DNA from: an uncultured Nitrospinota bacterium
Lineage (GTDB): Bacteria; Nitrospinota; Nitrospinia; Nitrospinales; JAJDAT01
Assembly: GCA_964344185.1 (NCBI GenBank)
Contig: CAYFMN010000014.1
Location: 1,384 to 65,383 of the forward strand
Length of the DNA stretch: 64,000 nucleotides
Direction: 5' to 3'
Positions 28,998-63,315 of the stretch are shown here, one piece after another (within the stretch, counting starts at the first letter, position 1; every line of letters starts with the position of its first letter). The position numbers and the translations under genes were made by a program. The notes beneath the pieces were generated by a model, which was given only the letters and a program-made list of their open reading frames with translations, had not been told where the DNA came from and ran no database searches.

Positions 28998-29057
28998 AGC
29001 AATCCTCCATACCCTTCGGGCTAAAATTAGTTATCAATATAATTTATTGCAAAATTA

Positions 29058-31325: not shown

Positions 31326-31393
31326 TTCATTTTCTTAATTTTAGCTAAGCTAAAAACATTCGCTCACAACCGAAACTTTGACATATCGATAAA

Positions 31394-33751: not shown

Positions 33752-33767
33752 AGTCTTACTATAAAAT

Positions 33768-35258
33768 TTAGCGTTTTTGTAATTCGCTTAATTTGCGCTC
33801 ACAGTGATGAACTAATTGCTCCTGATTAAATGAAAGAGGAAAGAGCATCAAGCCGCAATCAGAATTACCCAACTCCAATAATAACTTCCGCGATATGGCA
33901 TACTCTCTTTTTGCATCTCTAAAATTCTTTGTTTCTATAAATATTTCAGCAAGATAAAAATGGGACAACCAACAAGTTGATTCAATGTATATAGCTCCCT
34001 TAAAACGTTTAACCGCTTCTGGAATATCTTTTTTCAAACGAGAAATAATTCCTAAGAGCAAATATGCTTGGCGATTCCATTCCTCGATTTCCAAAACGCT
34101 TAAACAATCGCTAAAAGCTTGATCTAACCTTTCCAAACTAACTAAAATATTAGCTCGTAATAAATAATCGTTAGCGTTAGGGATCTGTTTTGAAAAAATA
34201 TTTTCAACAATATTTAATGCCTTTTTCCTTTGTCCACTCTTAGCTAAACTCAAGGCTTCCTGAAAAAAATTTTCATAAGAATCTTCCTTAGTTTCTTTTT
34301 TTATTGGAACTTTTTTCTCAATTTTCTTTTCTTGACTTACAGGAGATACCCCTGAAGTCTTCTTTTGAGCATACGAGTTTTTATTAACTCTCTCAAGTTT
34401 CTCAGGTTTTACGTTATTCTTTTCAAAAATTCCGCTTTCATTACTAAATAAATAATGGTCGTTAATTTCTTTCAATGGCAGAATGCCAGAGTTGTGATGG
34501 CTTGTTTCAACAATTCCCGTAAATAAATATCCTGGTTTTTTTAAAGCTTTTGCTAGCTTATTAAATATTTCTTTTCTAATTTCCATCACAAAATAAATCG
34601 AAACATTGCGATAGAAAATCACGTTCCACTTTGAATCCAATGAAAAATTTGATTCTGCAAGATTAATATTGGTAAAAGTTGCAGAATTAATGAAGCTATC
34701 GTTAATTTTATAAAGTTCTCCTTGTTCCGTGAAAAAAGCGTCAATAAAGTAAGCGTCGACATTTCTAAAGGAGTTTTTAAAATAAAGCCCTTTTCTGGCC
34801 TTTTTCAAAATTTCAGAATCTATATCAACACCTTCGGCATGTATCGTTCTTAATATTTCTTTACCAAATTTTAAGGTTAAAGCAATTAAAGCAGAATATA
34901 ATTCTTCCCCAGAAGAGCATCCCGCGCTTAATATTTTAAACTTTTCGGCGCCTTTCTTATTTTTTATAAACTCTGGGAATAAATGATCGGCCAAAATATT
35001 AAAATGACCCTGCTCTCGCATAAAATAGGTTTCATTTACCGTCAGCAAACTAACTAATTTTGCAAACTCAGCATTATCCCTTTCGATCAGAAAAAAATAA
35101 TCAGCTGGTTTATTTATATGATTCGCCTCCATACGGTGAGTTATCGCCGTAGGTAATTGACTCAATGTATCTTCTTTATATCCTGTAGAAACCCTATCAA
35201 ATATAAGCTGTCTAAAAGGCAAAACGTCTATTGCTTGATTGGTTGCGTCAATAGTCAT
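33768..35258 (-). CDS. cheR: chemotaxis methyltransferase CheR fused to C-terminal TPR repeats
   Basis: SAM-MTase core (ILSAGCSSGEELYS, IFYRNVSIYF) followed by about 170 aa of TPR-like repeats. Confidence 0.88.
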   Translation of the reverse strand: MTIDATNQAIDVLPFRQLIFDRVSTGYKEDTLSQLPTAITHRMEANHINKPADYFFLIERDNAEFAKLVSLLTVNETYFMREQGHFNILADHLFPEFIKNKKGAEKFKILSAGCSSGEELYSALIALTLKFGKEILRTIHAEGVDIDSEILKKARKGLYFKNSFRNVDAYFIDAFFTEQGELYKINDSFINSATFTNINLAESNFSLDSKWNVIFYRNVSIYFVMEIRKEIFNKLAKALKKPGYLFTGIVETSHHNSGILPLKEINDHYLFSNESGIFEKNNVKPEKLERVNKNSYAQKKTSGVSPVSQEKKIEKKVPIKKETKEDSYENFFQEALSLAKSGQRKKALNIVENIFSKQIPNANDYLLRANILVSLERLDQAFSDCLSVLEIEEWNRQAYLLLGIISRLKKDIPEAVKRFKGAIYIESTCWLSHFYLAEIFIETKNFRDAKREYAISRKLLLELGNSDCGLMLFPLSFNQEQLVHHCERKLSELQKR

Positions 35259-35261
35259 TAA

Positions 35262-36287
35262 CTATCTCTTAGCTATTTGATTGAGATACATAGCGATTTC
35301 ATTTAACGGTAAAACCTTTTCGATCGCTCCAGCATTTATTGCCCGTGAGTTCATACCAAATACAACGCTACTTTCTTTATCTTGGGCAATAGTCGTTCCA
35401 CCGCTAGATTTGATTTTTTCGATCCCTGCTACTCCGTCATCCGCCATTCCAGATAATATTAAACCAACGCTTTTTTCTCGAAACGAATAGGCCAAAGACG
35501 CTAATAAAATATCGCACGACGGCCTAAAAGAATTCGTCTCATTAGGTACAAGAAAGCTTATTTTACCGTCCGCTTCAATTTGCATATTAGATTCTGGAGG
35601 GCAAATATATACTTTTCCAGATGCCAAATAATCGCCTTCTTTCGCTTCTAAAACGGGATTAGTTGAAAGATCGTTTAACCAAGCGGCAAACCCAGCCCCA
35701 AAACCGTTTTCCATGTGCTGAGCTACTACTATTGGAAAAGGATATTTGGGACTTAATTCTGATAAGATAACTGAAAGAGCTTTTGGCCCTCCTGTAGAAC
35801 AAGCTATAGCGACGACTTTTTCAAATCTCGATATGGCTGTCGGAGATCCATTAAATTCTTGAGCTATGATTTTACTTTTTCTCTTTTTAAAGCGGCGAAT
35901 AACCTTGATTTTGGACAATAGCTTAACTTTATGGATTAAAACTTCCGCCCTAGCGGCGTCTAATTTACTTTTAGGAAACACCTCTAAAGCGCCTCTGGAA
36001 CAGGCGTCAAAAGCGGTTTTAGCGTCTTCTGAGCTAGAAACGACTAAAATAGGAACCGGTTCGCTGCCCATTATTTCCTCGATAGCTTCCAAACCATTCA
36101 TTATTGGCATATTAATATCAAGAGTAATAATATCCGGTTTATATTTTGCGGCTTTATGAACTCCTTCTTGTCCATTCCCGGCAACTCCAACTATCTCAAT
36201 TTCTGGATCGGAAGAAAGTATATCCTTCAAAATTTCCTGAACCATTGGGCTATCTTCTACTATCAAAACTTTTAAACTAGACATCAA
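35262..36287 (-). CDS. cheB: chemotaxis response regulator protein-glutamate methylesterase CheB
   Basis: REC domain (LIVEDSP, LDINMP) plus methylesterase domain (ACSTGGPKAL, QHMENGF, GMADDG). Confidence 0.92.
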   Translation of the reverse strand: MMSSLKVLIVEDSPMVQEILKDILSSDPEIEIVGVAGNGQEGVHKAAKYKPDIITLDINMPIMNGLEAIEEIMGSEPVPILVVSSSEDAKTAFDACSRGALEVFPKSKLDAARAEVLIHKVKLLSKIKVIRRFKKRKSKIIAQEFNGSPTAISRFEKVVAIACSTGGPKALSVILSELSPKYPFPIVVAQHMENGFGAGFAAWLNDLSTNPVLEAKEGDYLASGKVYICPPESNMQIEADGKISFLVPNETNSFRPSCDILLASLAYSFREKSVGLILSGMADDGVAGIEKIKSSGGTTIAQDKESSVVFGMNSRAINAGAIEKVLPLNEIAMYLNQIAKR

Positions 36288-50319: not shown

Positions 50320-51165
50320 TCAAATAGGCTTTATTTTAAATCTAGCTGTTGGAGATAACGTTCCCATTCTTAATCCTCCCATCCTTAAGCCTGTTAAAAC
50401 GTCTATTGAAGGAACAAAAGCATAGGAGCCAAATTCCAAAAACGAGAAAAAATCAGACTCAATTTGGCTAAATTCTTCTAGCAAGTTTTCAAGTTTTTGA
50501 GGAGTTCCGCTTAAAATCGTTAATAACAATCTATTTTCACTTTGAAAAACAAAAGAACGCGCTGAAAATTGCTTCAGGATATGTTGGAAACTTTCTGACT
50601 CAATAAATTTTTTAAATTTTTTTGCTAAAAAAATTTCAGATTTATCGTTTTTATTCCACAAAAAATTTAATCTTAAAGTAAAAGATCCTCCTAAAAACTC
50701 AGGATCTTCAGAACTTATTAAAGTTTTCCGGTTATCGTTTAAATTAGTTGAAAAAACTAAAGAGCCTTCGAAATGATCTGCAGTCTCCGTCAACTCGCTT
50801 AGATTAGTTTCAATTTCAGAAAGTAATCTTGCATTCCATTCTGGATTTTGCGAACTAAAAGAGATAAAAAAATCACCGCCCGTTTCAGCGGGATCTAATT
50901 TTTTTAACATGGAATTACGGAAATTCTCAAATGCCTTTGGTAAGTTTAAATGAAAAACTAAACTCCAAAACCTGAACCCAAAACCGATCATATAATCTAT
51001 TCTAGCTTCTTGACCAAACTTTCCTTGCTCTTCAGCCAAACCGGCAATCATTGCGGCAATTTTAGCGACACTCATAGCGTTTACGCCAAGGTCTTCGATA
51101 AAATAAACCAACGAAACGTTCCGGTCTTGTGGGTGAAAAATAGCGCCAGATTGGGGACGAACCAT
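50320..51165 (-). CDS. Dyp-type peroxidase-like protein (divergent)
   Basis: The N-terminus RPQSGAIFHPQ and the C-terminus GSYAFVPSIDVL resemble the start and end of the DyP/YfeX/EfeB fold. I could not find the canonical GxxDG motif, so the call is tentative. Confidence 0.4.
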   Translation of the reverse strand: MVRPQSGAIFHPQDRNVSLVYFIEDLGVNAMSVAKIAAMIAGLAEEQGKFGQEARIDYMIGFGFRFWSLVFHLNLPKAFENFRNSMLKKLDPAETGGDFFISFSSQNPEWNARLLSEIETNLSELTETADHFEGSLVFSTNLNDNRKTLISSEDPEFLGGSFTLRLNFLWNKNDKSEIFLAKKFKKFIESESFQHILKQFSARSFVFQSENRLLLTILSGTPQKLENLLEEFSQIESDFFSFLEFGSYAFVPSIDVLTGLRMGGLRMGTLSPTARFKIKPI

Positions 51166-53147: not shown

Positions 53148-53708
53148 TTATTCGCCAGAATCTTCTGGTTTTTTCTCATACTTGACCCCATACACCTTTG
53201 CGATAATTTCATTAATAATATCCTTGCCAAGGATATTATAAACAACATTTGCCGATTTAAAATGTTGACTAGTGAAAAGACTGAGCACCTTTTTACTGGA
53301 ATAACCTAACATCATAAATTCGTGGGCATAATTTTCTGCCACTAATCGTAAAGTCTTTTCATCAGCGTCTTCATCTCCGGTAGGAGGACCGGCATCTGGA
53401 TCGGCATCCTCTTTAACTTCATAAACATAAATCAAATGCCAACCAAACTCTGTTTTTACCGGATCGGTGACCGATCCTTCTTCAGCGGAAAAAGCAGCCA
53501 CCTCAAAAGGGCGGACCATAGCCCCCTTACCAAACCATCCCAAATCTCCGCCACGTTTTTTAGAAGGACATTCGCTGTGTAGCTGCGCTAACTCCGCAAA
53601 ATCTTCGCCATCCTCATATCGTTTCTTTAATTCAAGAGCTAATTCCTTATTAGAAACTAAAATGTGCCTAGCTTGCACTTTTTTAACTTTTCTTACCTTT
53701 GAAGACAT
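53148..53708 (-). CDS. parvulin-type peptidyl-prolyl isomerase (PpiC-like) with acidic linker and ~70-aa C-terminal extension
   Basis: Rotamase pattern ARHILV...DFAELAQLHSECPSKKRGGDLGWFGKGAMVRPFE...FGWHLIYV. Confidence 0.85.
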   Translation of the reverse strand: MSSKVRKVKKVQARHILVSNKELALELKKRYEDGEDFAELAQLHSECPSKKRGGDLGWFGKGAMVRPFEVAAFSAEEGSVTDPVKTEFGWHLIYVYEVKEDADPDAGPPTGDEDADEKTLRLVAENYAHEFMMLGYSSKKVLSLFTSQHFKSANVVYNILGKDIINEIIAKVYGVKYEKKPEDSGE

Positions 53709-53777
53709 AACACTTCTCGTAAAGATTAAGTTAATTCATACGGTTTTTTTGAAAAAGAAAAATAACCAATTATTTTT

Positions 53778-54377
53778 TTAAGCGCTTTTTCTTAACAATT
53801 CTTCGCCAATATTTTTGGCGTCTCTATAGCGATCTTTCAATAAATTTCTTAGATTTGGAATACATTCATTCAACGCAATTACTAAAGCGCCCTGATCATC
53901 AGGAATTTTATTATCCTCCGCCACTCTCAGCTCTTCTTTAAAATAGTAAGTATAATTGAAAATAGGAGGTTTATTTTCCTCTTCTAAATCCAACTTATAA
54001 AATGCTAATCGGACGGTTCTATTTTTACTATTAGGATCGATGTCATACGAATCTTCAACCAAATATTTAATTTTATCTAAAGAAAATTCTAATGGTTTAT
54101 TAGCTTTAGGAAAAAGTTCAACATAAGTAAAATATCGGCCAGACTCAAATTCCAAATAAGACATTGGGTTCTTTTCACCGTAAGCTTTCGCCTCAAAGTA
54201 ACGTTGTTTGAACAAAACCATTAACTCATCTGGTATCTCTTTAACAAACCGCTTAACAATTTCTGTTTGTACGTTTGTCAATGTAGGCTGATTCGGAGGA
54301 AGCGTATAGGTTTTTTTAAATCCCAATAAAAAGGAAATTCGATTCTCTGAGTTTTCTGTATCTCTAAAAGAAATCAA
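53778..54377 (-). CDS. hypothetical protein (frame stays open upstream to 54521; possible non-canonical start at 54518)
   Basis: The track start is a TTG. The 48 codons upstream in the same frame contain no stop and look like coding sequence. No recognisable family. Confidence 0.55.
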   Translation of the reverse strand: MISFRDTENSENRISFLLGFKKTYTLPPNQPTLTNVQTEIVKRFVKEIPDELMVLFKQRYFEAKAYGEKNPMSYLEFESGRYFTYVELFPKANKPLEFSLDKIKYLVEDSYDIDPNSKNRTVRLAFYKLDLEEENKPPIFNYTYYFKEELRVAEDNKIPDDQGALVIALNECIPNLRNLLKDRYRDAKNIGEELLRKSA

Positions 54378-54547
54378 TGCGTTCTGATAATCGCAAAACG
54401 GATTGGTATGATAATAATCCTCTAAAACGTAGAGATTTTCAAAGTCTTCCTCTTCAAATCTGTATGTTAGAACAGAGTTTTGACTCTCTTGTGGATTAAT
54501 ATTTCGATAAGATTCGATGGCTTAATTCCTTCTTAAAAAAATTGCGA

Positions 54548-54970
54548 CTATCCTATTGAACGAACGGCTCTGACACTACATTTATTATAAGCGCCGAATT
54601 TTTGAGCAAGATCTTCATAGCCATATCTATAATAAAAAACTATAGCGTTATCAAAGGGTTTTTCTTCGTTAGTCCAGATTGTATAAGAACCTCCAGGAGA
54701 AAAACTTGAATCAATGAAAATTTCAAATCTGTCCATATCGCGAATTCTTCTCTCAGGGTCATAAAGGCTTTGAGCTTCTTCTAAAGTAGGTAATCGCCAG
54801 TCAGAATAGCCGGCAAACTCATCAATATTCAGGTTTCTTAAATACTTTTGGGAATCATACCAACTCATGAATTCTCCATCATCTTGAAAACCGTCGGTTT
54901 GTTTCCACATTAACCTCGTTTCTTGATCTGTGACCGTGCCATCACCATTATCCTTAAATCTTTTTTCCAT
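54548..54970 (-). CDS. DUF1566 (Lcl C-terminal-like) domain protein, no signal peptide
   Basis: FKDNGDGTVTDQETRLMWKQ, GYSDWRLPTLEEAQSLY, IWTNEE and a C-terminal VRAVRSIG. Confidence 0.85.
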   Translation of the reverse strand: MEKRFKDNGDGTVTDQETRLMWKQTDGFQDDGEFMSWYDSQKYLRNLNIDEFAGYSDWRLPTLEEAQSLYDPERRIRDMDRFEIFIDSSFSPGGSYTIWTNEEKPFDNAIVFYYRYGYEDLAQKFGAYNKCSVRAVRSIG

Positions 54971-54982
54971 GGTTAAAAAAAC

Positions 54983-55891
54983 TTATCCTCTTATAGGTCT
55001 AACAGGTCTTATTCCATGACTTCGGAGGCCGCGCTTATACCACTTAAAATCGCCATTATAGTAAAACACTCTCATAGCCAAACGTTCGTCATTTTTATTT
55101 AAGGTTCTTGTCCAGGTAGTAACACCACATCCTGCTGGAAAAACTCTCGGTAAGTAAACAGTGTCGCCATAAACATCGGTGGTTGCATGGCCTGGACAAT
55201 AAATACTTAAGGCTTCTTTCTTTGTGGGCATTCTCCAATCTCCAAATTTAGCAAATTTATTTCTACATAATTCTTTAACATAAACTTTTGCTTCATCCCA
55301 ACTAACCCATTTATCCAGTTCTAATAAAGAATCCAGCTTTGCCCACATCAAATTTGTTTTTAAGTCGCTCACAGTCCCGTCTCGATTATCCACAAAACGA
55401 CTAACCTCCTCTATCCCACCCTGACCATCGTCCACGGTAATAACCATCGAATTTTCAGCCCCAACGCTACGAACCAAACGGACATTACTTGACGAAGAAT
55501 CATGATCTTTATCTAACCAATACTCATAATCGTCGCGAAAATCAAAACCCATGGCTTGTTTTGCGGCGCGCGTTTCGCTAGTCCAAGTAGTATATCCACA
55601 ACCCGAAGAAAACGACTTATCAATATGAACTTCGCATCCATCTTTGTCTGTGTTAATCGACTCGTATACGTAAAGAGTCTTAGCTTCTTTCGCATTTGGA
55701 ACGCGCCAATCTGAATACCCTGCAAGTTTTTCTTTGTTTTTTTCTTTAACAAATTCTTGAGCCTCAACCCAAGTAATATATTTTTCTAATTCCAACCAGG
55801 AATCTCCTTTTGTCCACATAAGAGAAGACTCCATATCGGTTATAGTGCCGTCGCCGTTATCAACGAATCTATTTTTTTGCGTTATTTCCAA
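54983..55891 (-). CDS. tandem double DUF1566 domain protein, no signal peptide
   Basis: Two copies of the signature: FVDNGDGTITD...LMWTK...YSDWRVPNAKEAKTLY...TWTSE...VRLVRSVG, and FVDNRDGTVSD...LMWAK...FGDWRMPTKKEALSIY...TWTR...IRPVRPIRG. Confidence 0.88.
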   Translation of the reverse strand: MEITQKNRFVDNGDGTITDMESSLMWTKGDSWLELEKYITWVEAQEFVKEKNKEKLAGYSDWRVPNAKEAKTLYVYESINTDKDGCEVHIDKSFSSGCGYTTWTSETRAAKQAMGFDFRDDYEYWLDKDHDSSSSNVRLVRSVGAENSMVITVDDGQGGIEEVSRFVDNRDGTVSDLKTNLMWAKLDSLLELDKWVSWDEAKVYVKELCRNKFAKFGDWRMPTKKEALSIYCPGHATTDVYGDTVYLPRVFPAGCGVTTWTRTLNKNDERLAMRVFYYNGDFKWYKRGLRSHGIRPVRPIRG

Positions 55892-55906
55892 ACCACCCTC
55901 ATTTTT

Positions 55907-56356
55907 TTAACCGTCTTTTTGTAAATTTCTTACGAAACGAGTCGCGCCTCGAGAAGTTCGATAAACGTCGTCATACATAGTTCCGCCTTTTCTATAACTA
56001 AATCTCACCGCTTGAATTTTGTTTCTGACGTCGCTAGTCCAACACATAAAACCAAAACCCGGATTAAAAGCTTTATGCAGCCAAGCTATTTGCCCCATAT
56101 GATCTTTATTGGATTGGCCTTTTTCGTAAATACTTTTCGCTTCAGCCACAGTGGGAACTCTCCAGTTCGCAAATCCCGAAACCTTATTTTGGTTTTGTTC
56201 TTCTGCAAAGTCTCGACATTGAACCCAGTTCATCCATTTACCGCTTAATTGCCAAGTATCTTTCTTAAACCACATTAGTCGGGTTTTGACATCAAAAACG
56301 GTATTTTCATCGCAGTCAATAAACCGTTGTGAATCGGAATCTTTGGCGCTCGTCAT
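55907..56356 (-). CDS. DUF1566 domain protein (degenerate N-terminal motif), no signal peptide
   Basis: FIDCDENTVFDVKTRLMWFKK, FANWRVPTVAEAKSIY, CWTSD, TRFVRNL. Confidence 0.8.
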   Translation of the reverse strand: MTSAKDSDSQRFIDCDENTVFDVKTRLMWFKKDTWQLSGKWMNWVQCRDFAEEQNQNKVSGFANWRVPTVAEAKSIYEKGQSNKDHMGQIAWLHKAFNPGFGFMCWTSDVRNKIQAVRFSYRKGGTMYDDVYRTSRGATRFVRNLQKDG

Positions 56357-56379
56357 TGAAAATAATCTTAAACTTATTA

Positions 56380-56883
56380 CTATCTACGTTTTAAAGAACG
56401 GCGTTCTTTACCAACAACATCTTTCCTACACAACCGCACGCTTCCAAAACTATATTCTTCCGCCGTTAACAGCTTCCCCTCGGCAAAATCAAATCGCGGT
56501 CTTTTAGTTGACGTATCGCCATTAACCCAGCAGGTTTTAAAAGCTCCTTCCGGGAAAGCTGGATCCAAGTGAAGAGTTACTCCACCTTTGCCAGGAATCT
56601 CTTTATCTTTTATAAATAAAGTTTGGATCTCATCGGCTAAAGGCAATCGCCAGTCGTCAAATTTACCAATCTTTCGAATATTTTTAGTGTCTGCATAATC
56701 TCTAGATTCATGCCAATTAAAAAACTTTCCTTTATCTTGCCAAGAATCCTTTTTCATCCAGGAAATCCCAGTTTCCGTATCATAAACAACAAATGGACCT
56801 TTGGGTATAAAACGTTTAGGACCTTCATCTTCAACTTTTTCAACTTGTTCGCCGGTTTTTTTTACTTCTGGTAAATCGCTCAT
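56380..56883 (-). CDS. DUF1566 domain protein (divergent), no signal peptide
   Basis: VVYDTETGISWMKKD, FDDWRLPLADEIQTLF, CWVNGD, VRLCRKD, with a charged N-terminal tail. Confidence 0.75.
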   Translation of the reverse strand: MSDLPEVKKTGEQVEKVEDEGPKRFIPKGPFVVYDTETGISWMKKDSWQDKGKFFNWHESRDYADTKNIRKIGKFDDWRLPLADEIQTLFIKDKEIPGKGGVTLHLDPAFPEGAFKTCWVNGDTSTKRPRFDFAEGKLLTAEEYSFGSVRLCRKDVVGKERRSLKRR

Positions 56884-56959
56884 ACAATTATGGCCTCCAC
56901 ATTAAAAGTCGAAAAAACCTTAGATCCAGTTTGATATTTCATAAACCGTAAAGCAGGCT

Positions 56960-57178
56960 TTAATCGCCTGTATAACCAATCTCTACATTTCCTTCATCCA
57001 CGTTAACAATCACGGGAACAATATATTTTCCATTCGAATATTCCAACAACTGCTCTAAACCACGCTCGTTATTATCAACGTCGATAAAAATAAAAGATTT
57101 TAAGTTTTTTTTATAGTCGGCCAGCGCTTTCTGGGTGTGCGGGCAATCTCTTTTTCCAAAAATCATATAATTACTCAT
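56960..57178 (-). CDS. glutaredoxin/NrdH-like thioredoxin-fold protein with CPHT (monothiol) motif
   Basis: 72 aa. MIFGKRDCPHTQKA aligns with the CPxC position of small glutaredoxin-like proteins, and VPVIV...IGYTG is the cis-Pro/GG-like end. Confidence 0.7.
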   Translation of the reverse strand: MSNYMIFGKRDCPHTQKALADYKKNLKSFIFIDVDNNERGLEQLLEYSNGKYIVPVIVNVDEGNVEIGYTGD

Positions 57179-57255
57179 GCGCTATGTTCCGATAAAATTA
57201 TTTTTGATTTGAAAGAACCTATAAAAGAACTTCTCTTAATTTCACCCAATAAAAA

Positions 57256-57891
57256 TTATCCATCGAACTTCCTAGAGTCTTTCCTCCATTCAGGCTCCCA
57301 TTCCTCTTTCTGTTCGTCTCGAACGGCTCTTATGTGAGAATATTCATTATCTTTATTTTCCCACATTTCATTTCCTGTAACATAACTGAACTTCATAGCA
57401 TATTGGTGGTAGTCCGGTTTTTCTTCATATGTCCATGTATTATGTCCACCGTTAGACTCGAAAATTGGGTCAATATGAATTTCAGCGTCATCTTTATCAT
57501 AGTTTGATTTTTCAAAAGAAAATAAAGTCTTGGCCTCGTCGAACCCTGGTAACCTCCAATCATCATAACCTGCAAATTTTTTCTCATTTAAGGCTTCACA
57601 ATAATCATGAGCTTCATACCAGTTAATTCCATAGCCAAACTCTTCGAATGAATCTGATTTAGTCCACATAATATTGTGACGAGAATCGCTAACAGTTCCA
57701 TTCTCATTATCTACGTATATTGGGACATCAGGCTCTACAAGAGAATCCTCATCGTCATCTTCTTCGTCCCAACCTTCGTCGCCTTCCCACTCATCAACTA
57801 TATAATCTTCGTCTTCTGTGGAATCTTCCTCAGTTTGGTCGATTTTATCAAGCTCGTTTTCCTCCTGATCTACCATGTTTTCATCGCCCAT
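57256..57891 (-). CDS. DUF1566 domain protein with ~60-aa poly-acidic N-terminal extension
   Basis: The N-terminus is rich in D/E (EDSTEDEDYIVDEWEGDEGWDEEDDDEDS). Then VDNENGTVSDSRHNIMWTK, YDDWRLPGFDEAKTLF, TWTYEE, IRAVRDE. Confidence 0.85.
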   Translation of the reverse strand: MGDENMVDQEENELDKIDQTEEDSTEDEDYIVDEWEGDEGWDEEDDDEDSLVEPDVPIYVDNENGTVSDSRHNIMWTKSDSFEEFGYGINWYEAHDYCEALNEKKFAGYDDWRLPGFDEAKTLFSFEKSNYDKDDAEIHIDPIFESNGGHNTWTYEEKPDYHQYAMKFSYVTGNEMWENKDNEYSHIRAVRDEQKEEWEPEWRKDSRKFDG

Positions 57892-57942
57892 AAAGCCACC
57901 TATTGATTCTATAATTGGTACGGTTACTAAAAATATAACTAC

Positions 57943-58380
57943 TTAAATATCTCTAACCAGGCGTACCGAAGTACCTGTAGTTGCAACGCTTTGATCAACA
58001 CAAACTTCTTTACCAGACGGGAAGTATGACTTCCACGCATACGACCCATAACGAGTCTCTGAACTCCAAAGACTTTGTTCTCCTCCCGATTTATAATCCG
58101 AAACCTTACGATTCGCTTTAGGAGGTTCATTCAAAAATATTTGCCTATAATCTTCTTTATTTTTGAGTAACGACCGTAATTCACTTTTAGTCGGTATTCT
58201 CCAATCTCCAAAACCTAAATAGTTTTGTTCGTTACATACGCGAACATACTCCATAGCTTCATCCCAGTTGAGCCATTTTTCTAATTCGGCCCTAGAATCT
58301 TTTTTGGACCAACAGAGGTCTTCTTCAAGATCAGTAACAGTACCATCGTTATTATCTTTAAAACTCGACGTTTGAGTCAT
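57943..58380 (-). CDS. DUF1566 domain protein, no signal peptide (first gene of the array)
   Basis: FKDNNDGTVTDLEEDLCWSKKD, FGDWRIPTKSELRSLL, LWSSE, VRLVRDI. ATG 58380 is preferred over the TTG at 58392 in the track. Confidence 0.85.
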   Translation of the reverse strand: MTQTSSFKDNNDGTVTDLEEDLCWSKKDSRAELEKWLNWDEAMEYVRVCNEQNYLGFGDWRIPTKSELRSLLKNKEDYRQIFLNEPPKANRKVSDYKSGGEQSLWSSETRYGSYAWKSYFPSGKEVCVDQSVATTGTSVRLVRDI

Positions 58381-58565
58381 AATTAAAACCAAACAAATAG
58401 CTTAAAATAAAAAAAACACTCCTATCGACGGTTCTCCCGGAAATAACATACTTTTCGACTCCTCTGATAAAGAGTCAAACTTCCCAAGACAAACATATGC
58501 CAATAATTAGAGTGTTTCCCTAGAAAGATTCAATCAAAAATAAAATCGAATCTTGATAAAATACC

Positions 58566-58591
58566 ATCAGCAAAGGTAATTTTCAAGGCAA
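58566..58591 (-). repeat. copy B of a bipartite direct repeat in the region upstream of the DUF1566 operon
   Basis: Plus strand: ATCAGCAAA-GGTAAT-TTTCAAGGCAA. Minus strand: TTGCCTTGAAA-N6-TTTGCTGAT. On the minus strand TTGAAA-N17-TATTTT forms a plausible sigma70-type promoter here. Confidence 0.4.
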
Positions 58592-58751
58592 AACCTTTCA
58601 AAAGTCTACTGTTTAGCGGAAAACCGATTACTCTCATACGGTATTAAAATGAACTTCTATCATATAAATATAATACCTATTTTTCTCCCTTAAAAGATAG
58701 AAATAACATCTTCCCTATGGGTTTTTCTTTCTCAAGATCTACATTCCTTTG

Positions 58752-58779
58752 ATCAGCAAATATAACAGTTTCAAGGCAA
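58752..58779 (-). repeat. copy A of the same bipartite direct repeat
   Basis: Plus strand: ATCAGCAAA-TATAACAG-TTTCAAGGCAA. The 9-nt and 11-nt half-elements are identical to copy B and the spacer is 8 nt instead of 6. Confidence 0.4.
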
Positions 58780-58800
58780 TCTTAGTAAAAAGTTTAAGAC

Positions 58801-58838
58801 AAAAAAAAAGCCGGAGGGGAAATCCCCTCCGGCTTTTA
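58801..58838 (-). terminator. strong rho-independent terminator of the 163-aa secreted-protein gene
   Basis: Perfect 10-bp GC-rich stem GCCGGAGGGG/CCCCTCCGGC with an AAAT loop. It is followed on the minus strand by T9. TTTTA on the other side gives partial bidirectional character. Confidence 0.85.
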
Positions 58839-58854
58839 TAAAACTAAATACGAC

Positions 58855-59346
58855 TTATCTTTGATATTCTGGCTTTTGATTTTGGTTAGAGAAAATTCCT
58901 CTTTCCGTACCTTCTGGTAATCCTAAACCAGGCTCAATGTAAGTACCAGGTCGAACGTGATCCATATGGTAATCACTTTGGTAAGTTTTACCGGAACCTG
59001 CATCAATCTTCCAGTCGTTCCGATCAAAACGTTGGCGTTGGCAGTTAATTTGGATATCGCCAGGGCCATTGTTTTTAAAATCGGTTCTTACAGCAATAGC
59101 ATTAGTTTGGTATCCACCAGGTGGCAAGTCTCTTTTGTACCATTTACCCCAACCATAAGCATGAGGACCAATGTCAAATTGAACATTAGTCTCTTGGGAC
59201 TCACTCACGTTGTAGATAATCCAAGAAGCGTCTTCACATACACTCGTGTCGCCAGCTTTTAAGGTAGAAACATTAGCGGCAGCAATCGAGGTAAGCGCAA
59301 AAAACGCTAAGGCCGTGAAAATCACGGTACTCGTCCTTCTCATCAT
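58855..59346 (-). CDS. secreted hypothetical protein
   Basis: Clear signal peptide (RRTSTVIFTALAFFALTSIAAA). Strong SD (GGGGGAG) 3 nt before the ATG. No recognisable domain. Confidence 0.7.
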   Translation of the reverse strand: MMRRTSTVIFTALAFFALTSIAAANVSTLKAGDTSVCEDASWIIYNVSESQETNVQFDIGPHAYGWGKWYKRDLPPGGYQTNAIAVRTDFKNNGPGDIQINCQRQRFDRNDWKIDAGSGKTYQSDYHMDHVRPGTYIEPGLGLPEGTERGIFSNQNQKPEYQR

Positions 59347-59594: not shown

Positions 59595-59990
59595 TCAAAC
59601 TCGGAATTTTAAGGAAGTCAAATTTGTTAGGCTTTTGGAATTTATTAATAGTTTTTCGCCTTTTTCCGAAATATCATTTACTACTAATTGTAAGCTTTTT
59701 AAGCTTTTTAATGTTTTTGAGTTTGCCAAGTATTCAGCGCCAATGTCGGTAATCCCATTAGATTTCAAATTTAAAGTTCTAACTTTTGATAAAAAAGGCG
59801 ATTCAGCGATAGCTTTTACTCCATCGTCACCAATAGCGTTTTGCGTTAAATCCAACGCTCTTAGATTAGAAAGAGCTTCACATTCGGCTAATTTTTTCGC
59901 CCCTACTTCGCGAATAAACTGAGCTTTTAAGTTTAAAACCTGACCGTCTTTGCTTAATCGGTCCTCGATCAATTCTAAAACGTCTGCCAT
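59595..59990 (-). CDS. small cytoplasmic RNI-type leucine-rich repeat protein
   Basis: No signal peptide. Repeats LRALDLTQNAIGDDGVKAIAESPFLSKVRTLNLKSNGITDIGAEYLANS are of the same type as the two secreted LRR proteins at 15.5-17.6 kb. Confidence 0.8.
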   Translation of the reverse strand: MADVLELIEDRLSKDGQVLNLKAQFIREVGAKKLAECEALSNLRALDLTQNAIGDDGVKAIAESPFLSKVRTLNLKSNGITDIGAEYLANSKTLKSLKSLQLVVNDISEKGEKLLINSKSLTNLTSLKFRV

Positions 59991-60021: not shown

Positions 60022-60816
60022 TCATCCGAGCCCCTGGATATTCTTCGCCTCAAACCCATAATCATCATAGATAGTCCATCCTTCCGCCAACATCTTTTTT
60101 CCCAGTTTTTCCAAGAGAGCCGCCGGAGAATTATTGGGATCTATTTCGAGAACTTTTTTTAAATGTCTCAAAGCTTTTTTTACGTCATTGATCTCGTCAC
60201 CGTAATGAGTCAGCTGGCGCGATTTATCAACTAAATCCGACGCCCATTTGTAATAGACGTTCGCTATACACAACGGCGCGTTTTCCGAAATATATTCCGC
60301 TAAATCATCATCTGCTTTTAGCATTGGTAAACATTTCAACGCTTGCTCAAATTCATTAATGGGATTTTCATAATCTTCAGATAATACTTTTGTAATTGAA
60401 TCTTTTTCCTTATGCTCATTTAGCAAACCAATAGAACTTTTAACTACATCCGAAGAAGTTCCACCCATCAGTTTATTGTAATATAAATTACCTAAGCCAA
60501 AATGAATCACTCCGCCAAATGCATTATCTTCATCGCATTCAAGAGCGATCTGAAACTGTTCCATGGCTTCGTCATAATGCCTGAGTTCCTCTAAGGCCTC
60601 GCCCAAATTATAGTGATGAATACAATTATCTGGCTCTTCTTCAATTTGTTGCTTAAATAATTCAATTTGAGCTTCAAGGTCAAACTCAACTTCCTCGTCG
60701 TCAAGTTCTTCCTGTAAATCTGGCTCCTCATCTTCCAGAGCTTCGTTTTCCTCAGATTCTGGGCTACTTTTCTCTTGCTCTTCCTCTTGCTCTTCTAAAT
60801 TATTTTGATCGCTCAT
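60022..60816 (-). CDS. TPR-repeat protein with poly-acidic N-terminal extension
   Basis: The N-terminal ~55 aa are D/E-rich (EEQEEEQEKSSPESEENEALEDEEPDLQEELDDEE). Then TPR-like helices (HHYNLGEALEELRHYDEAMEQFQIALECD). Confidence 0.7.
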   Translation of the reverse strand: MSDQNNLEEQEEEQEKSSPESEENEALEDEEPDLQEELDDEEVEFDLEAQIELFKQQIEEEPDNCIHHYNLGEALEELRHYDEAMEQFQIALECDEDNAFGGVIHFGLGNLYYNKLMGGTSSDVVKSSIGLLNEHKEKDSITKVLSEDYENPINEFEQALKCLPMLKADDDLAEYISENAPLCIANVYYKWASDLVDKSRQLTHYGDEINDVKKALRHLKKVLEIDPNNSPAALLEKLGKKMLAEGWTIYDDYGFEAKNIQGLG

Positions 60817-61430
60817 TTTGAGACTGACTTATTAGTTATAGTTCTCACAGGACGTATTACAGTTAATGATTGCATAATACCCCCCTTAAGGCTCAGGTAT
60901 GCTTGTCCTCTAATAAAGTTAAAACCGTACGCATATTTCTCTTTATATTCCTCGCTAGTCCAAAAACAACAACTCGTATCGCCGAAAATAGGATCAATGT
61001 GCACTACGTTTTCTGTCCAATAATATTTCCATGGAACTTCTTTTTCCTCTTCGTATAGAGATCTTAATTCTTTTTTTAGCGGTAAACGCCAATCTGAATG
61101 ATCTGCAAACTTTTTATCATTCATCTCTTTAATATATTTTTGCGCATCGTGCCAATTTAACCACTTTTTTCTTTCTTGGTATGAATCCCGGGCTTTCCAC
61201 ATCAAGTTTTCTTTGTGGTCCGTTACTGTTCCATCGCCATTATCCGTAAACCTTTCGGGCAAAGGAGTTCCATCTGGACCTAATTTGGGTTTCGAGGGTT
61301 TGACTTCTACTTTATGCCCATAATAGTACCCTTCGTCGCCAAAGGCGACTGTTCCTACCCCTCCAAAACACAAAACCATAGTTAGGGCAAGCAAATATAC
61401 GATAAAAAGTCTAAATTGTATATTTTTCAA
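60813..61430 (-). CDS. DUF1566 domain protein with signal peptide (the only exported paralog)
   Basis: Hydrophobic leader FRLFIVYLLALTMVLCFGGVGTVAFG. Then FTDNGDGTVTDHKENLMWKA, HSDWRLPLKKELRSLY, FWTSEE, IRPVRTI. 4-nt overlap with the downstream TPR gene. Confidence 0.85.
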   Translation of the reverse strand: MKNIQFRLFIVYLLALTMVLCFGGVGTVAFGDEGYYYGHKVEVKPSKPKLGPDGTPLPERFTDNGDGTVTDHKENLMWKARDSYQERKKWLNWHDAQKYIKEMNDKKFADHSDWRLPLKKELRSLYEEEKEVPWKYYWTENVVHIDPIFGDTSCCFWTSEEYKEKYAYGFNFIRGQAYLSLKGGIMQSLTVIRPVRTITNKSVSK

Positions 61431-61469: not shown

Positions 61470-62462
61470 TTATTCGTCTTTTGGAGCCCAATCTGGCTCC
61501 CAAGTAAGGCAAATTCCTGCGGGATCCTTCAGTTGTCCAGGTTCTCTTCCAATTGACCCCCACTTACCAACAAAATTAAACTCTTTATCCAACTTCTGAA
61601 TCCGGTTATTAAGCGTATCCACTACAAATAGAAAACCATATGGGTCCTGGGCCAAACACATCGGACAGTTAAACTGTCCTTCACGTTTACCAAGCTCTCC
61701 AAAACTTGCAATAAAATTTCCCTCATTATCAAAAACCTGACAACGATTTTGACTTTTCTCCGAAACAATTATTGTGCCATCTTTACGCACCACAATGCCA
61801 TTCGGAAAATTGAAAAACCCTTCCTCAAAACCATATTGTCCAAATTTTGAAACATACTGGCCGTCTTCGTTAAAAATCTGAACACGCTGGTTGTCTCTAT
61901 CCGCCACATAAATATTTCCTTCACGATCTAAAGCAACGCCTGTAGGGTATTTTAGAAAACCGTCAAAATCTCCAGAAAACCCAAAACCTAAAAGAAATTC
62001 TCCATCATCGTCAAAACGTTTAAAGCAATGGTTTGCCGTATCAGCTACAAGAATGGTTCCAGCAGCCTCTACCACTATGCCTTCTGGCATATAAAACTTG
62101 TCCGGCCCCCAACCTTCTTGCCCAAACTCCAAAAGAAAATTTCCTTCCTCGTCGAACTTTTGTATCCGATGACACCCCGTATCGGCAACCCAAATATTAC
62201 CATACGAGTCGACGGCAACTCCCATTGGGGTTTTAAACTCTCCAGGATTATAAGGAGCGCGCGTACCGGCTGGTCGGCCAAATTGCATTAAAAACTTCCC
62301 ATTTCCGTCGAATTTTTGAATACGATTATTTCCTGCATCGGCCACCCAAACATATAATTTAGAATGGTCGACAACCGGTATTTCCTCGGGTAAAGCCTCT
62401 TCTACCTCAACTAGTTCCTGCCCAATCTCTAACTCTTCTGTTTCAGTTTTTTCTTTTTCCAT
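61470..62462 (-). CDS. cytoplasmic six-bladed NHL-repeat protein of TRIM-NHL-like type with acidic N-terminus
   Basis: Six repeats of G.F..P.G[IV].V...G.I.VAD..N.R[IV]Q.FD..G.F...FG. No signal peptide. The N-terminal 30 aa are E-rich. Confidence 0.85.
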   Translation of the reverse strand: MEKEKTETEELEIGQELVEVEEALPEEIPVVDHSKLYVWVADAGNNRIQKFDGNGKFLMQFGRPAGTRAPYNPGEFKTPMGVAVDSYGNIWVADTGCHRIQKFDEEGNFLLEFGQEGWGPDKFYMPEGIVVEAAGTILVADTANHCFKRFDDDGEFLLGFGFSGDFDGFLKYPTGVALDREGNIYVADRDNQRVQIFNEDGQYVSKFGQYGFEEGFFNFPNGIVVRKDGTIIVSEKSQNRCQVFDNEGNFIASFGELGKREGQFNCPMCLAQDPYGFLFVVDTLNNRIQKLDKEFNFVGKWGSIGREPGQLKDPAGICLTWEPDWAPKDE

Positions 62463-62688: not shown

Positions 62689-63315
62689 TTATTTAATCTG
62701 GAAATTTTTTACATCTAAAATCTGGTATTCAAAATCGCAAACCTTTTGAAAATCAAGCAGTCTTTCATTCCAATTTTCTTTGAATGTATCCAGGTTTTCC
62801 ATTTTAGGCTTTTTTTTCATAAGCTTAACTTCCTTAAAAAGCGGCTTTACCAAATTCTTATGAACCTGTTGGAGACAGTTTCTCAATTTCACAACACATT
62901 CTTTGGTAACTTGCTCACGTGTAACCCCATCAACTTTTTCCAATAGTCTTAAGAAACTTTGGATGGTAACTAATTGGGTCGTATAACTCTCAACCAAACG
63001 ATGATCATATTTCAGACCACAGTCGATGTATGAAGGCATCAAAAACATACCTAAATGATGATCAAATTTTATAGTTAAATTAATTAGCTTTTGAAGATAA
63101 TCGGCTTCTCTAGCGTCCTCGTCTTCGTCCTCTTCACCCTCTTCAAGTTCTTGAGCCGCTTTTACCTTTTCAAGCTCTAGTTCTTTTTTAATTTTCTCCA
63201 ACTCGCTAAGATCGGCCACCCCGCCTTCTTTAGAGGAGTCTCCTCTAAGGGATTCTTCATCGCCTTCGGCTTCGGTTCCTGATTGTTCTGCCGGATTAGT
63301 TTCTTTTTCGCTCAA
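62689..63315 (-). CDS. hypothetical protein with acidic coiled-coil N-terminal half
   Basis: EAEGDEESLRGD...ELEEGEEDEDEDAREAD, followed by a ~130-aa helical domain with no recognisable family. Confidence 0.55.
   Translation of the reverse strand: MSEKETNPAEQSGTEAEGDEESLRGDSSKEGGVADLSELEKIKKELELEKVKAAQELEEGEEDEDEDAREADYLQKLINLTIKFDHHLGMFLMPSYIDCGLKYDHRLVESYTTQLVTIQSFLRLLEKVDGVTREQVTKECVVKLRNCLQQVHKNLVKPLFKEVKLMKKKPKMENLDTFKENWNERLLDFQKVCDFEYQILDVKNFQIK

Follow-up and report, generated by a model that had tools for sequence, protein, structure and literature searches.

What might a set of leaderless lectin-fold paralogs do in a bacterial cell when they are encoded together with a glutaredoxin-like protein, a YecA-annotated protein, and a parvulin? 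We analyzed this question for an array found in a 64-kb stretch of DNA from an uncultured Nitrospinota bacterium; the whole stretch is hereafter called the window.

Organization of the array

Nine consecutive open reading frames (ORFs) lie on the minus strand between positions 58392 and 53148. They are preceded by a hairpin and are listed here in the direction of transcription:

58806..58837, minus strand: strong intrinsic-terminator-like hairpin (14-bp stem with 9 GC pairs, T-run)
57943..58392, minus strand: L1, leaderless single-module Lcl_C protein, 149 aa (maximal ORF); PF07603, 76 bits; dN/dS 0.03-0.05; orthogroup monophyletic (200/200)
57256..57891, minus strand: L2, Lcl_C protein of 211 aa, N-terminal segment acidic, C-terminal WEPEW; Pfam, 75 bits
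56960..57178, minus strand: glutaredoxin-like protein, 72 aa, motif C-P-H-T; PF00462, 26 bits; NF041114, 72.8 bits
56380..56883, minus strand: L3, leaderless Lcl_C protein, 167 aa, basic (pI 9.0); Pfam, 46 bits
55907..56356, minus strand: L4, leaderless Lcl_C protein, 149 aa, basic (pI 9.5); Pfam, 57 bits
54983..55891, minus strand: L5, two-module Lcl_C protein (L5a and L5b), 302 aa; Pfam, 133 bits over two stretches
54548..54970, minus strand: L6, leaderless Lcl_C protein, 140 aa; Pfam, 74 bits; AlphaFold pLDDT 94
53778..54470 (from TTG, 53778..54377), minus strand: YecA-annotated homolog of the SEC-C family, Nitrospinota-specific; AlphaFold pLDDT 84
53148..53708, minus strand: cytoplasmic parvulin-type peptidyl-prolyl isomerase (PPIase), 186 aa; PF00639, 80 bits

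The successive intergenic gaps are 51, 77, 76, 23, 15, 12, 170, and 69 nt. Both the coordinates and the spacing proposed in an earlier reading of the sequence alone (nine minus-strand ORFs, gaps of 12-77 nt and one of about 170 nt) were reproduced and, in agreement with that sequence-only reading, no convincing terminator was seen inside the array. The hairpin just upstream of the array probably ends the preceding transcription unit, and the gene spacing suggests that the array itself is co-transcribed.

Family and fold of the Lcl_C modules

The six Lcl_C ORFs contain seven modules, all of which are assigned to PF07603 by profile search with scores of 46-133 bits (the Pfam gathering cut-off is 34.9 bits), the same ORFs and DUF1566 copies that had been counted from the sequence alone. 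A module HMM applied to the whole window detected exactly eight modules, the eighth belonging to the signal-peptide-bearing gene 60813..61430. The seven leaderless modules are, on average, 32.7% identical to one another (25-42% for individual pairs), close to the earlier estimate of a quarter to a third, and the previously noted motifs agree with the invariant alignment columns, namely D, W, D, W, WR-P, E, W, and R-VR. Residues W35, W56, R57, P59, and E63 are invariant across all eight window modules.

The AlphaFold model of L6 (pLDDT 94, pTM 0.88) has the C-terminal domain of the Legionella adhesin Lcl (8q4e_A) as its best Foldseek neighbor in PDB, with an E-value of 4.6e-4, a probability of 1.0, and a TM-score of 0.55-0.58, which bears out the lectin fold expected from the sequence. 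The FGE-like domains of cytoplasmic EgtB follow, and then PorK and C-type lectins; also ranking below Lcl are the FGE-like domain of SenA (like EgtB a sulfoxide synthase), CarF, and one FGE paralog. The modules are ancient paralogs of a mini C-type-lectin/FGE fold. In Lcl, Trp315 lies at the trimer interface and Arg338 forms a salt bridge with Glu344 (PMC11162425); in the modules, these residues correspond to the invariant Trp and to the Arg and Glu of the W-R-x-P-x-x-x-E motif.

The array modules share with Lcl of Legionella pneumophila the Pfam family, the fold, and the structural-core residues, and, like Lcl, they have neither disulfides nor a Ca2+/carbohydrate motif. However, Lcl is a secreted homotrimeric adhesin with a collagen stalk that binds sulphated glycosaminoglycans, whereas the array modules form free-standing leaderless proteins of 140-300 aa, as eight divergent paralogs per operon with cytoplasmic partners co-encoded. 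No hydrophobic N-terminus or collagen repeats were found in the array proteins, and the adhesin_Lcl profile (NF046116) yields 15.7 bits against a cut-off of 500. With EgtB/SenA, FGE paralogs, and PorK/GldK the modules share an R-L-P-T-x-x-E helix motif, and EgtB is a precedent for this fold working in the bacterial cytoplasm. These FGE-like domains, however, are about twice the size of the module and occur as fusions with catalytic or lipoprotein parts; unlike them, the modules conserve no catalytic or metal-binding residues.

History and individuality of the paralogs

Each of the nine orthogroups is monophyletic in the tree (200/200), and L3 and L4 are sister groups (190/200). Across the block genes dN/dS is 0.01-0.08 (0.014-0.075), with dS near or above 1, as expected from the earlier suggestion of old, maintained paralogs. 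Nine of ten positions that are fixed within orthogroups but differ between paralogs fall in the C-terminal 45% of the module. The two-module form of L5, the sole fusion seen, is retained in 67 loci. An acidic segment of 57 aa (53% D/E) precedes the L2 module; it had been described as a poly-D/E tail of about 60 aa but is in fact N-terminal. In L3, the N-terminal segment is charged and the C-terminal tail is basic. Most other lineages have seven proteins with eight modules, and one paralog, L0, was lost in the window clade. Since this clade also has no SEC-C motif (see below), not every part of the system is indispensable.

Predicted location

Signal peptides were sought by a hydropathy scan with the ORFs taken as maximal; because the listed ORFs are maximal, upstream extension is impossible. 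The scan detected no hydrophobic N-terminus in the six array Lcl_C proteins or in the 58-73 orthologs per group, and it scored two secreted neighbors from the same block, used as positive controls, as positive. The leaderless character noted from the sequence thus extends to the maximal ORFs and to the orthologs of every group. The evidence favors a cytoplasmic location of the Lcl_C array proteins, and their partners (the glutaredoxin-like protein, the leaderless Par10-like parvulin, and the SEC-C zinc motif) belong to cytoplasmic types. In the Lcl_C family elsewhere, 113 of the 145 top-scoring representatives have a hydrophobic N-terminus. Other lineages also possess stand-alone leaderless Lcl_C genes (about 140 aa) without the partners, which means that the module can work alone and that single-domain Lcl_C proteins of the cytoplasm exist outside the Nitrospinota system as well.

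Partner proteins

The glutaredoxin-like protein exceeds the cut-offs of both PF00462 (22.9 bits) and NF041114 (72 bits), in accord with the CxxT gene of glutaredoxin/thioredoxin fold recognized previously. Its active-site Cys is at the N-terminus of helix 1 and a cis-Pro loop is present, as in PF00462; D-C-P-[HY]-T and V-P-V-I-V are kept in 48 orthologs. With a single Cys, the protein is monothiol. The redox motif of the NF041114 family is UxxT (PMC13188914). The array protein has the xxT part in common with this family, but CPHT replaces UxxT: the motif is encoded by gat tgc ccg cac acc, where TGC specifies Cys and selenocysteine is absent. The U-x-x-stop tail that defines the family is missing as well, since the protein ends in GYTGD-TAA and its reading frame contains no TGA. 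The match to the profile extends just from position 2 to 66 of 70, and the orthologs end in IGYTD-stop or IGYTGD-stop-stop. Cysteines vary between the Lcl_C paralogs in the alignment, so these offer no obvious common substrate for the glutaredoxin-like protein.

The gene previously left as unknown is identifiable as a Nitrospinota-specific member of a YecA/SEC-C-annotated family that has lost its SEC-C motif. Its frame runs about 90 nt upstream of the TTG codon, to about 54470, and encodes a conserved N-terminus with no canonical start codon. Other Nitrospinota orthologs end in the canonical zinc-binding motif CPCGSGKKxKxCC and are annotated as YecA family; this motif is found in 262-aa orthologs (e.g., P0014, 33.9 bits with PF02810), but the 215-aa forms of the window clade, the window protein among them, lack it at the C-terminus. 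The window clade has also lost a Cys and the His of the N-terminal C-x4-C-x-C-x-H, a motif of zinc-finger type, with CTNPFCDCNH changed to HTNPFCDYQN. Unlike the SEC-C/YecA family, the core of about 200 aa contains no UPF0149/YecA domain; no other Pfam or NCBIfam domain was found in it, and the AlphaFold model (pLDDT 84) has no significant PDB neighbor.

The parvulin exceeds the PF00639 cut-off (21.7 bits) by far, and its residues 9-100, to which PDB matches are confined, align with the structures of PrsA, Par10, and Pin1 over the whole catalytic domain, so that the earlier assignment stands. The protein is predicted to be a leaderless PPIase with a Par10/PrsA-like catalytic domain; Par10/PpiC-type cytoplasmic parvulins likewise combine a canonical catalytic domain with the lack of a signal peptide. 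With a dN/dS of 0.014-0.016, it is encoded by the most conserved gene in the block. Like NifM, a dedicated parvulin, it is encoded in the operon of its presumed clients, but the NifM model scores it far below cut-off (57 versus 168 bits). Unlike Par10 and NifM, it has a unique C-terminal extension of about 85 aa, which is near-invariant and has no PDB match.

The larger conserved block

The array forms the distal end of a block of 15-16 genes, a larger unit than originally stated. Upstream of the array, the block comprises:

62689..63315, minus strand: first gene of the block, 208-aa protein with an acidic N-terminal half; syntenic in 38 loci
61470..62462, minus strand: leaderless NHL-repeat beta-propeller, 330 aa, N-terminus acidic, C-terminal WEPDW; PF01436, 133 bits
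60813..61430, minus strand: secreted Lcl_C paralog, 205 aa, with a hydrophobic, signal-like N-terminal segment; Pfam, 77 bits
60022..60816, minus strand: TPR protein, 264 aa, N-terminal segment acidic (47% D/E); TPR Pfam matches
59595..59990, minus strand: RNI-type leucine-rich-repeat (LRR) protein, 131 aa; PF13516 (LRR_6), 52 bits; synteny
58855..59346, minus strand: conserved secreted 163-aa protein with a hydrophobic N-terminus; syntenic in 52 loci

The block order is therefore acidic protein, NHL, secreted Lcl_C, TPR, LRR, secreted 163-aa protein, array, and parvulin. The secreted Lcl_C gene and the TPR gene that follows it share 4 nt, in which the stop of the one overlaps the start of the other. 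Neither the 208-aa nor the 163-aa protein has a Pfam, NCBIfam, or PDB match. From the NHL gene to the parvulin gene, the order is kept gene for gene in 46 Nitrospinota loci, including those of N. gracilis and Ca. Nitrohelix, whereas the flanking genes differ. The sequence-only reading had left gene order in related genomes to be checked, and the outcome is the opposite of genes never linked elsewhere. In two loci (L009 and L010), only the L4/L5/L6-YecA-like-parvulin part occupies the corresponding position; thus, the array can be split. No comparable Lcl_C array turned up outside Nitrospinota, and no published description was found in the searchable literature, consistent with the earlier remark that no described system matches.

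Two proteins of the block are linked by a short motif. WEPxW occurs in 44 of 45 NHL orthologs and in 53 of 55 L2 orthologs (in the window, WEPDW at 61488..61502 and WEPEW at 57286..57300, respectively) and in no other ORF across 72 loci. The six-frame translation of the window contains it twice versus 0.01 expected.

Possible functions of the system

We favor, at a probability of about 0.4, the inference that the paralogs form hetero-oligomers in the cytoplasm, which would serve for binding or as a scaffold and would have a foldase of their own. The L5 fusion and the conserved Lcl interface residues would count for physical association of the paralogs. The gene order kept across loci, the low dN/dS, and the short gaps speak for a functional unit, and the separately conserved C-terminal positions for a distinct fixed role of each paralog. 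The split arrays in L009 and L010, the losses in the window clade, the variable cysteines, and the stand-alone leaderless genes of other lineages count against this reading. The sequence-only reading had proposed either a scaffold or ligand-binding assembly or substrates of a non-classical export route; the evidence favors the former and proves neither.

The paralogs could instead be independent cytoplasmic receptors, each for a different metabolite, glycan, or protein, that are co-regulated and form no complex. Their individually conserved C-terminal surfaces, the stand-alone genes of other lineages, the split array in L009 and L010, and the dispensability of L0 in the window clade are all compatible with such receptors. 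Nevertheless, we regard them as an improbable, if serious, explanation given the rigid gene order throughout the phylum, the very short gaps, the stable L5 fusion, and the conservation of the Lcl trimer-interface residues.

It is still less likely that the array encodes adhesins or surface proteins exported by a non-classical route, with the SEC-C protein, the parvulin, and the glutaredoxin-like protein as export chaperones. Most of the Lcl_C family is exported, as are two proteins of the block, and the SEC-C motif also occurs in the tail of SecA, where it binds SecB and the ribosome. However, none of the 58-73 orthologs per paralog has a signal peptide, a transporter or secretion gene was not found in the block, the window clade dropped the SEC-C motif while keeping all else, and glutaredoxin-type proteins and Par10-type parvulins are cytoplasmic.

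Two further explanations seem quite improbable. According to the first, the paralogs would provide a redox pathway with catalytic or substrate-binding subunits in the manner of FGE/EgtB, and the glutaredoxin-like protein would be the thiol partner. The structural neighbors ranking after Lcl (EgtB/SenA FGE-like domains, CarF, and the FGE paralog) and the thiol-redox protein embedded in the array point in this direction, but the invariant residues form the structural-core set, no Cys/His metal or catalytic site is common to the paralogs, and the module of only about 130 aa lacks the DinB-type partner domain of EgtB. According to the second, the genes share no function and are neighbors by descent only, as the partial arrays in L009 and L010 might suggest; against this, the order persists in 46 loci with differing flanks despite saturated synonymous divergence, and WEPxW occurs in two block proteins of unrelated fold and nowhere else.

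Diversity-generating retroelements (DGRs) often target DUF1566 and C-type-lectin folds (PMC4159848, PMC5758913), but the view that the array consists of such targets or is an anti-phage defense island is effectively refuted, as no template/variable repeat pair is present (the sole direct repeats are paralogous motifs, 61-74% identical), a crude YxDD-type motif scan of the window found no reverse-transcriptase-like ORF, dN/dS of 0.02-0.07 indicates no hypervariation, and PADLOC yielded nothing beyond a generic SEC-C tail. In PADLOC-DB, the SEC-C tail of an ortholog weakly matches E2-type models, the NHL (17.1 bits) and TPR (15.6 bits) proteins give sub-threshold, chance-level scores, and the Lcl_C, glutaredoxin-like, parvulin, 208-aa, LRR, and secreted 163-aa proteins have no match.

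In the favored cytoplasmic assembly, the paralogs would combine a common structural core with a C-terminal surface conserved separately in each of them. The C-terminal surface is the ligand-binding part in this fold; hence, each subunit would add a distinct fixed specificity or always occupy one place in the complex. The dedicated foldase may be the parvulin; a plausible site of its action is the W-R-x-P turn, which is invariant in the modules. The glutaredoxin-like and zinc-motif proteins may be accessory redox and adaptor factors. WEPxW might dock L2 and the NHL propeller onto a common partner, either the TPR protein, a candidate WEPxW receptor, or the LRR protein. Such docking would connect the array with the upstream sub-block, from which two proteins are also exported. 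The block is specific to Nitrospinota and almost universal in this phylum, which includes marine nitrite-oxidizing bacteria.

Architecture of the array and its leaderless paralogs

The sequence-only reading had placed nine consecutive minus-strand ORFs in an operon-like array, and their positions proved exact. In transcription order the array encodes two Lcl_C (DUF1566) paralogs (L1 and L2), a glutaredoxin (Grx)-like protein, four further paralogs (L3 to L6, L5 having two modules, L5a and L5b), a YecA-like protein of 199 aa and a parvulin. The short spacing claimed for these genes was recovered as gaps of 51, 77, 76, 23, 15, 12, 170, and 69 nt, and the reported lack of an internal terminator holds in a consensus scan, which found only weak hairpins within coding sequence. 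The array and features upstream of it lie in the window as follows:

53148-58392 (-), nine-gene array
58393-58854, intergenic gap of 462 nt upstream of L1
58806-58837 (-), strong terminator immediately upstream of the array, with a 14-bp stem, 9 GC pairs, and a T-run
60813-61430, gene of a secreted Lcl_C protein

The six ORFs described as DUF1566 paralogs score 46-133 bits with PF07603 (gathering score 34.9), and Pfam likewise finds the seven claimed modules, two of them in the 302-aa protein. An HMM built from these modules detects eight copies, no more, in the 64 kb of the window; the additional one belongs to the protein with a signal-like N-terminus at 60813-61430. The low pairwise identity estimated by eye was confirmed by calculation, the seven leaderless modules averaging 32.7% (range 25-42%), and the proposed sequence motifs reappear as the invariant columns D, W, D, W, W-R-x-P, E, W, and R-x-x-R. 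The acidic tail ascribed to one paralog was misplaced: the D/E-rich stretch of the 211-aa protein (L2) is N-terminal, covering residues 1-57, of which 53% are acidic.

The absence of an N-terminal hydrophobic segment was assessed over residues 1-40 by a hydropathy scan with an 11-residue span and internal controls rather than by a dedicated signal-peptide predictor. All six proteins lack such a segment, as do essentially all of their orthologs (58-73 per group, with one L1 exception), while for the two secreted neighbours, used as positive controls, the scan was positive in 64% and 85% of orthologs. Since the ORFs were called at their longest possible extent, no upstream correction of a start could add a signal peptide; hidden signal peptides are excluded by these maximal ORFs and the agreement of orthologs.

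Conservation of the block across Nitrospinota

The 67 species-level genomes in which the YecA-like marker was detected all belong to Nitrospinota; two of them are MAGs labelled Nitrospirae. Metagenome assemblies from ENA project PRJEB17505 contain matches to the window itself. Window proteins were compared by BLAST with the maximal ORFs of 72 loci. This comparison revealed a larger block with a fixed gene order: a 208-aa acidic protein, an NHL propeller, the secreted Lcl_C protein, a TPR protein, a 131-aa LRR protein, and a secreted 163-aa protein, followed by [L0], L1, L2, Grx-like, L3, L5, L4, L6, YecA-like, and parvulin. The linkage extends well beyond this genome, the order being complete from NHL to parvulin in 46 loci; it holds in Nitrospina gracilis, Ca. 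Nitrohelix vancouverensis, and other lineages, with flanks that differ between lineages. The contrast between the variable flanks and the unvarying block is illustrated by the Ca. Nitrohelix vancouverensis locus (L073, CP048620.1), where a HigB-like toxin/HTH antitoxin pair lies just upstream of the block at 1303-1892.

The view of these genes as old, maintained paralogs is borne out by the module trees: the nine module types are each monophyletic in 200/200 bootstrap trees, and L3+L4 (190/200) and L2+L5a (159/200) form sister pairs. A single in-situ radiation of all Nitrospinota modules was not supported, their joint monophyly being recovered in 68/200 trees. Across the phylum each paralog has an ortholog of its own, at 50-75% identity. 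All 15 genes show dN/dS of 0.014-0.075 against two close relatives, with dS near or above 1.

L0, a further leaderless paralog of about 165 aa, occurs in most Nitrospinota between the secreted 163-aa gene and L1 (at about 5.1-5.8 kb in loci L001, L003, and L011), at the place of the gap 58393-58854 in the window. It is missing from the window and five related loci (L004-L008, together the window clade); no L0 relic was found in the 462-nt gap, where the weak tblastn matches correspond to the N-terminus of L1 itself. The order of L4 and L5 is swapped, L4 coming first in the window clade and L5 in most lineages. Loci L009 and L010 (CP070799.1, Nitrospinaceae bin1391) contain, at this position, only the L4/L5/L6-YecA-like-parvulin part, preceded by 6.8-10 kb of unrelated genes; here the array is possibly divided between two sub-operons.

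Fold and surfaces of the Lcl_C modules

An AlphaFold model of L6, built from 73 sequences, reached a pLDDT of 94 and a pTM of 0.88. Its top PDB neighbour is the C-terminal domain of Legionella Lcl (8q4e, probability 1.0), followed by the FGE-like domains of EgtB and SenA and then by CarF, Bd2740, PorK, and classical C-type lectins. EgtB and SenA are cytoplasmic sulfoxide synthases, and Bd2740 is a Bdellovibrio fibre tip. These neighbours uphold the assignment to a lectin fold, in the form of a lectin/FGE superfold.

The ligand-binding surface in folds of the lectin/FGE type is formed by the C-terminal region. Every orthogroup has its own strongly conserved C-terminal segment. Ten positions are conserved to 85% or more within orthogroups yet differ between paralogs, and nine of them fall in the C-terminal 45% of the module. 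The residues common to all modules are a structural-core set, including a Trp and an Arg-Glu pair that match Lcl; in the Lcl structure the Trp contributes to the trimer interface and the Arg-Glu pair forms an internal salt bridge (PMC11162425). No Cys/His catalytic or metal site common to the modules was found in their alignments. The two-module L5 protein is the only fusion and is stable in 67 loci. By profile score, fold, and core residues the modules belong to the Lcl_C family, whereas the array proteins lack the export and the collagen stalk that define the Lcl adhesin.

The Grx-like, YecA-like, and parvulin genes

The gene predicted to encode a glutaredoxin-like CxxT protein was verified as such, its 72-aa product passing the Pfam Glutaredoxin model. 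The product also reaches the cut-off of the NCBIfam model 'UXX-star selenoprotein family 1' (72.8 vs 72 bits). A 2026 review names this family 'distant Grx-like protein 1' and gives UxxT as its motif and two as its number of Sec residues (PMC13188914). The motif here is C-P-H-T, with the Cys codon TGC. A selenoprotein reading was rejected: the gene ends in GYTGD-TAA without an in-frame TGA, and its orthologs are alike. Judged by its sequence, the protein is the Cys form of UXX-star family 1 without the second, C-terminal Sec.

The YecA-like gene, left as unknown in the sequence-only reading, has 45 homologs, without exception in Nitrospinota and mostly of 262 aa. Most of them terminate in a canonical SEC-C zinc motif and bear the annotation 'YecA family'; the window clade has lost this motif together with one Cys and the His of an N-terminal C-x4-C-x-C-x-H motif. 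No Pfam domain was found in the core, and nothing in PDB matches its model (pLDDT 84) significantly, the best hit being the PUR repeats of PURA (E 0.11); the duplicated beta-beta-beta-beta-alpha topology of the model, reminiscent of the PUR-repeat fold, is a weak lead. In the window, the gene is called from a TTG (53778-54377), and its reading frame extends upstream past that codon. Most Nitrospinota start at ATG-T-Y-R-F-E-E-E, where the window clade has CTA or CTC (window 54470-54468). About 30 codons after this position (TYRFEEEDFENLYVLEDYYHTNPFCDYQN) are conserved, with only synonymous differences among clade members, and the frame contains no ATG, GTG, or TTG between the upstream stop (54524-54522) and 54377 (-). 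This pattern suggests non-canonical initiation in the window clade, with the in-frame ATC at 54518 and ATT at 54500 as candidate starts.

The parvulin call also stands: residues 9-100 form a canonical Par10/PrsA-type catalytic domain. A C-terminal extension of about 85 aa is near-invariant and has no counterpart in solved structures.

The upstream sub-block and the WEPxW motif

Two block proteins of unrelated fold, the NHL propeller and L2, share a C-terminal WEPxW motif (44/45 and 53/55 orthologs, respectively). The C-terminal peptides read …TWEPDWAPKDE in NHL and …EEWEPEWRKD… in L2. No other ORF of 55 aa or more in the 72 loci has the motif, and a six-frame translation of the window contains it exactly twice, compared with an expectation of 0.01 from shuffled sequence. 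Four proteins of the block (the 208-aa protein, NHL, TPR, and L2) start with strongly acidic segments that are probably disordered. Neither the 208-aa nor the 163-aa protein had a match in sequence searches of Pfam, NCBIfam, and PDB. The secreted Lcl_C gene and the TPR gene share 4 nt (window 60813-60816), the stop of the former running into the ATG of the latter; this overlap suggests translational coupling in the upstream sub-block.

Several other genes of the window were noted:

13315-15468 (+), larger second NHL/teneurin-type propeller protein, 717 aa, without WEPxW
17666-19117 (+), caspase-domain (Peptidase_C14) protein, without WEPxW
25348-36287 (-), chemosensory cluster: MCP with HAMP, response-regulator-GAF-PAS-adenylate/guanylate cyclase, CheA-CheW-receiver hybrid kinase, CheR, and CheB; the cluster lies where the GC skew of the window is most strongly negative
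50320-51165 (-), 281-aa ORF weakly matching the N-terminal domain of Dyp-type peroxidases (20.7 bits vs cut-off 20.4), conserved beside the block in the close relative L004
63565-63996 (-), ORF with the Cys-rich end CNECG...CLKCLSCG

At the position of the last ORF, L004 encodes a class II ribonucleotide reductase of 1200 aa that includes a TSCPD domain; the ORF is therefore probably the 3' end of that gene, truncated by the window edge.

Lcl_C genes outside Nitrospinota

To our knowledge, the Lcl_C/DUF1566 fold has so far been described in adhesins that are secreted, in fimbrial tips, in phage fibres, and in DGR targets. The family comprises more than 32,000 clusters at 50% identity. An exhaustive search of representatives with the module profile returned giant multi-repeat proteins as its top 150, and of 145 top-scoring representatives, 113 are hydrophobic at the N-terminus, so that Lcl_C proteins elsewhere are mostly exported. 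Word-indexed homolog searches with the Grx-like protein and the module profile gave Nitrospinota matches only and are uninformative on other phyla.

A metagenome scan queried with a three-module alignment yielded 80 Lcl_C loci, 34 Nitrospinota blocks and 46 others. About 12 of these 46 are stand-alone leaderless Lcl_C genes of about 140-165 aa, without recurring partners, on contigs of GC 0.38-0.56:

L093, L098, L104, L108-L110, L112, L114, L116-L118 (metagenome contigs), stand-alone leaderless Lcl_C loci

Their products begin directly with M..ERF.DNGDGT and share 34-47% identity with the paralogs of the window; the surrounding genes are unrelated. L117 and L118 additionally contain, at a distance of about 4 kb, an LRR gene with 32% identity to the LRR protein of the block. 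A cytoplasmic location of leaderless Lcl_C proteins would therefore not be unique to Nitrospinota. Arrays of three or more Lcl_C genes were absent from this small sample of 46 non-Nitrospinota loci, and the eight-module array with fixed partners was not seen outside Nitrospinota in the metagenome sample. Literature searches gave no mention of the N. gracilis locus tags or of a Nitrospina DUF1566 cluster. The fold family is known; what is new is its conserved multi-paralog cytoplasmic context.

Proposed mechanism and alternatives

On sequence evidence, L1 to L6 are ancient, non-redundant, leaderless lectin-fold paralogs. Their genes are strongly constrained and share an operon-like array with those of a monothiol Grx-like protein, a zinc-motif protein, and a parvulin. 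We infer that the paralogs are cytoplasmic, co-transcribed, and interacting. They would form a hetero-oligomeric binding or scaffold assembly in which each subunit presents a fixed, distinct surface; the parvulin would serve as a dedicated foldase, plausibly acting at the invariant W-R-x-P turn, and WEPxW would dock L2 and the NHL propeller onto a common partner. Certain eukaryotic TPR domains bind C-terminal or Trp-acidic peptides, and by analogy the co-encoded TPR or LRR proteins are candidates for this partner. To the mechanism as a whole, combining paralog assembly, parvulin foldase, and WEPxW docking, we assign a probability of about 0.4. Its fullest version is less likely: a hitherto unrecognised cytoplasmic, Nitrospinota-specific machine of eight non-redundant lectin-fold subunits, NHL, and TPR/LRR adaptors, assembled through the short linear motifs WEPxW and acidic tails, matured by the parvulin, and functionally coupled to two exported proteins.

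The paralogs might instead act as independent soluble receptors, an alternative that we consider unlikely. Non-classical export of the paralogs is disfavoured to a greater degree, because the block has no transporter gene, the co-encoded partners are cytoplasmic-type proteins, and the window clade has lost the SEC-C motif. An FGE/EgtB-like enzymatic role is very improbable, since the modules lack common catalytic residues, and just as little weight is given to mere synteny, in which the genes would be neighbours and nothing more. The genes are almost certainly neither DGR targets (the window has no template repeat, a crude YxDD-type motif scan of it gave no RT-like ORF, and there is no hypervariation) nor a defence system (PADLOC gave no match apart from the generic SEC-C tail of an ortholog).

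Significance

Most marine nitrite oxidation is carried out by Nitrospinota, and much of their conserved gene content is without an assigned function. About 16 genes are kept gene-for-gene across the phylum under strong purifying selection, and the block is therefore likely important for Nitrospinota biology. If the fullest version of the mechanism is true, the dominant nitrite oxidisers of the ocean would possess a scaffold built on short motifs, a style of organization more familiar from eukaryotes. The block would be a clear example of an intracellular role for the Lcl_C/DUF1566 fold, and it is directly open to testing through its defined paralogs, whose specificity surfaces are fixed, through the prolyl isomerase encoded with them, and through the docking motif that two of its proteins share. 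Solving its function would assign a role to a large 'domain of unknown function' family.
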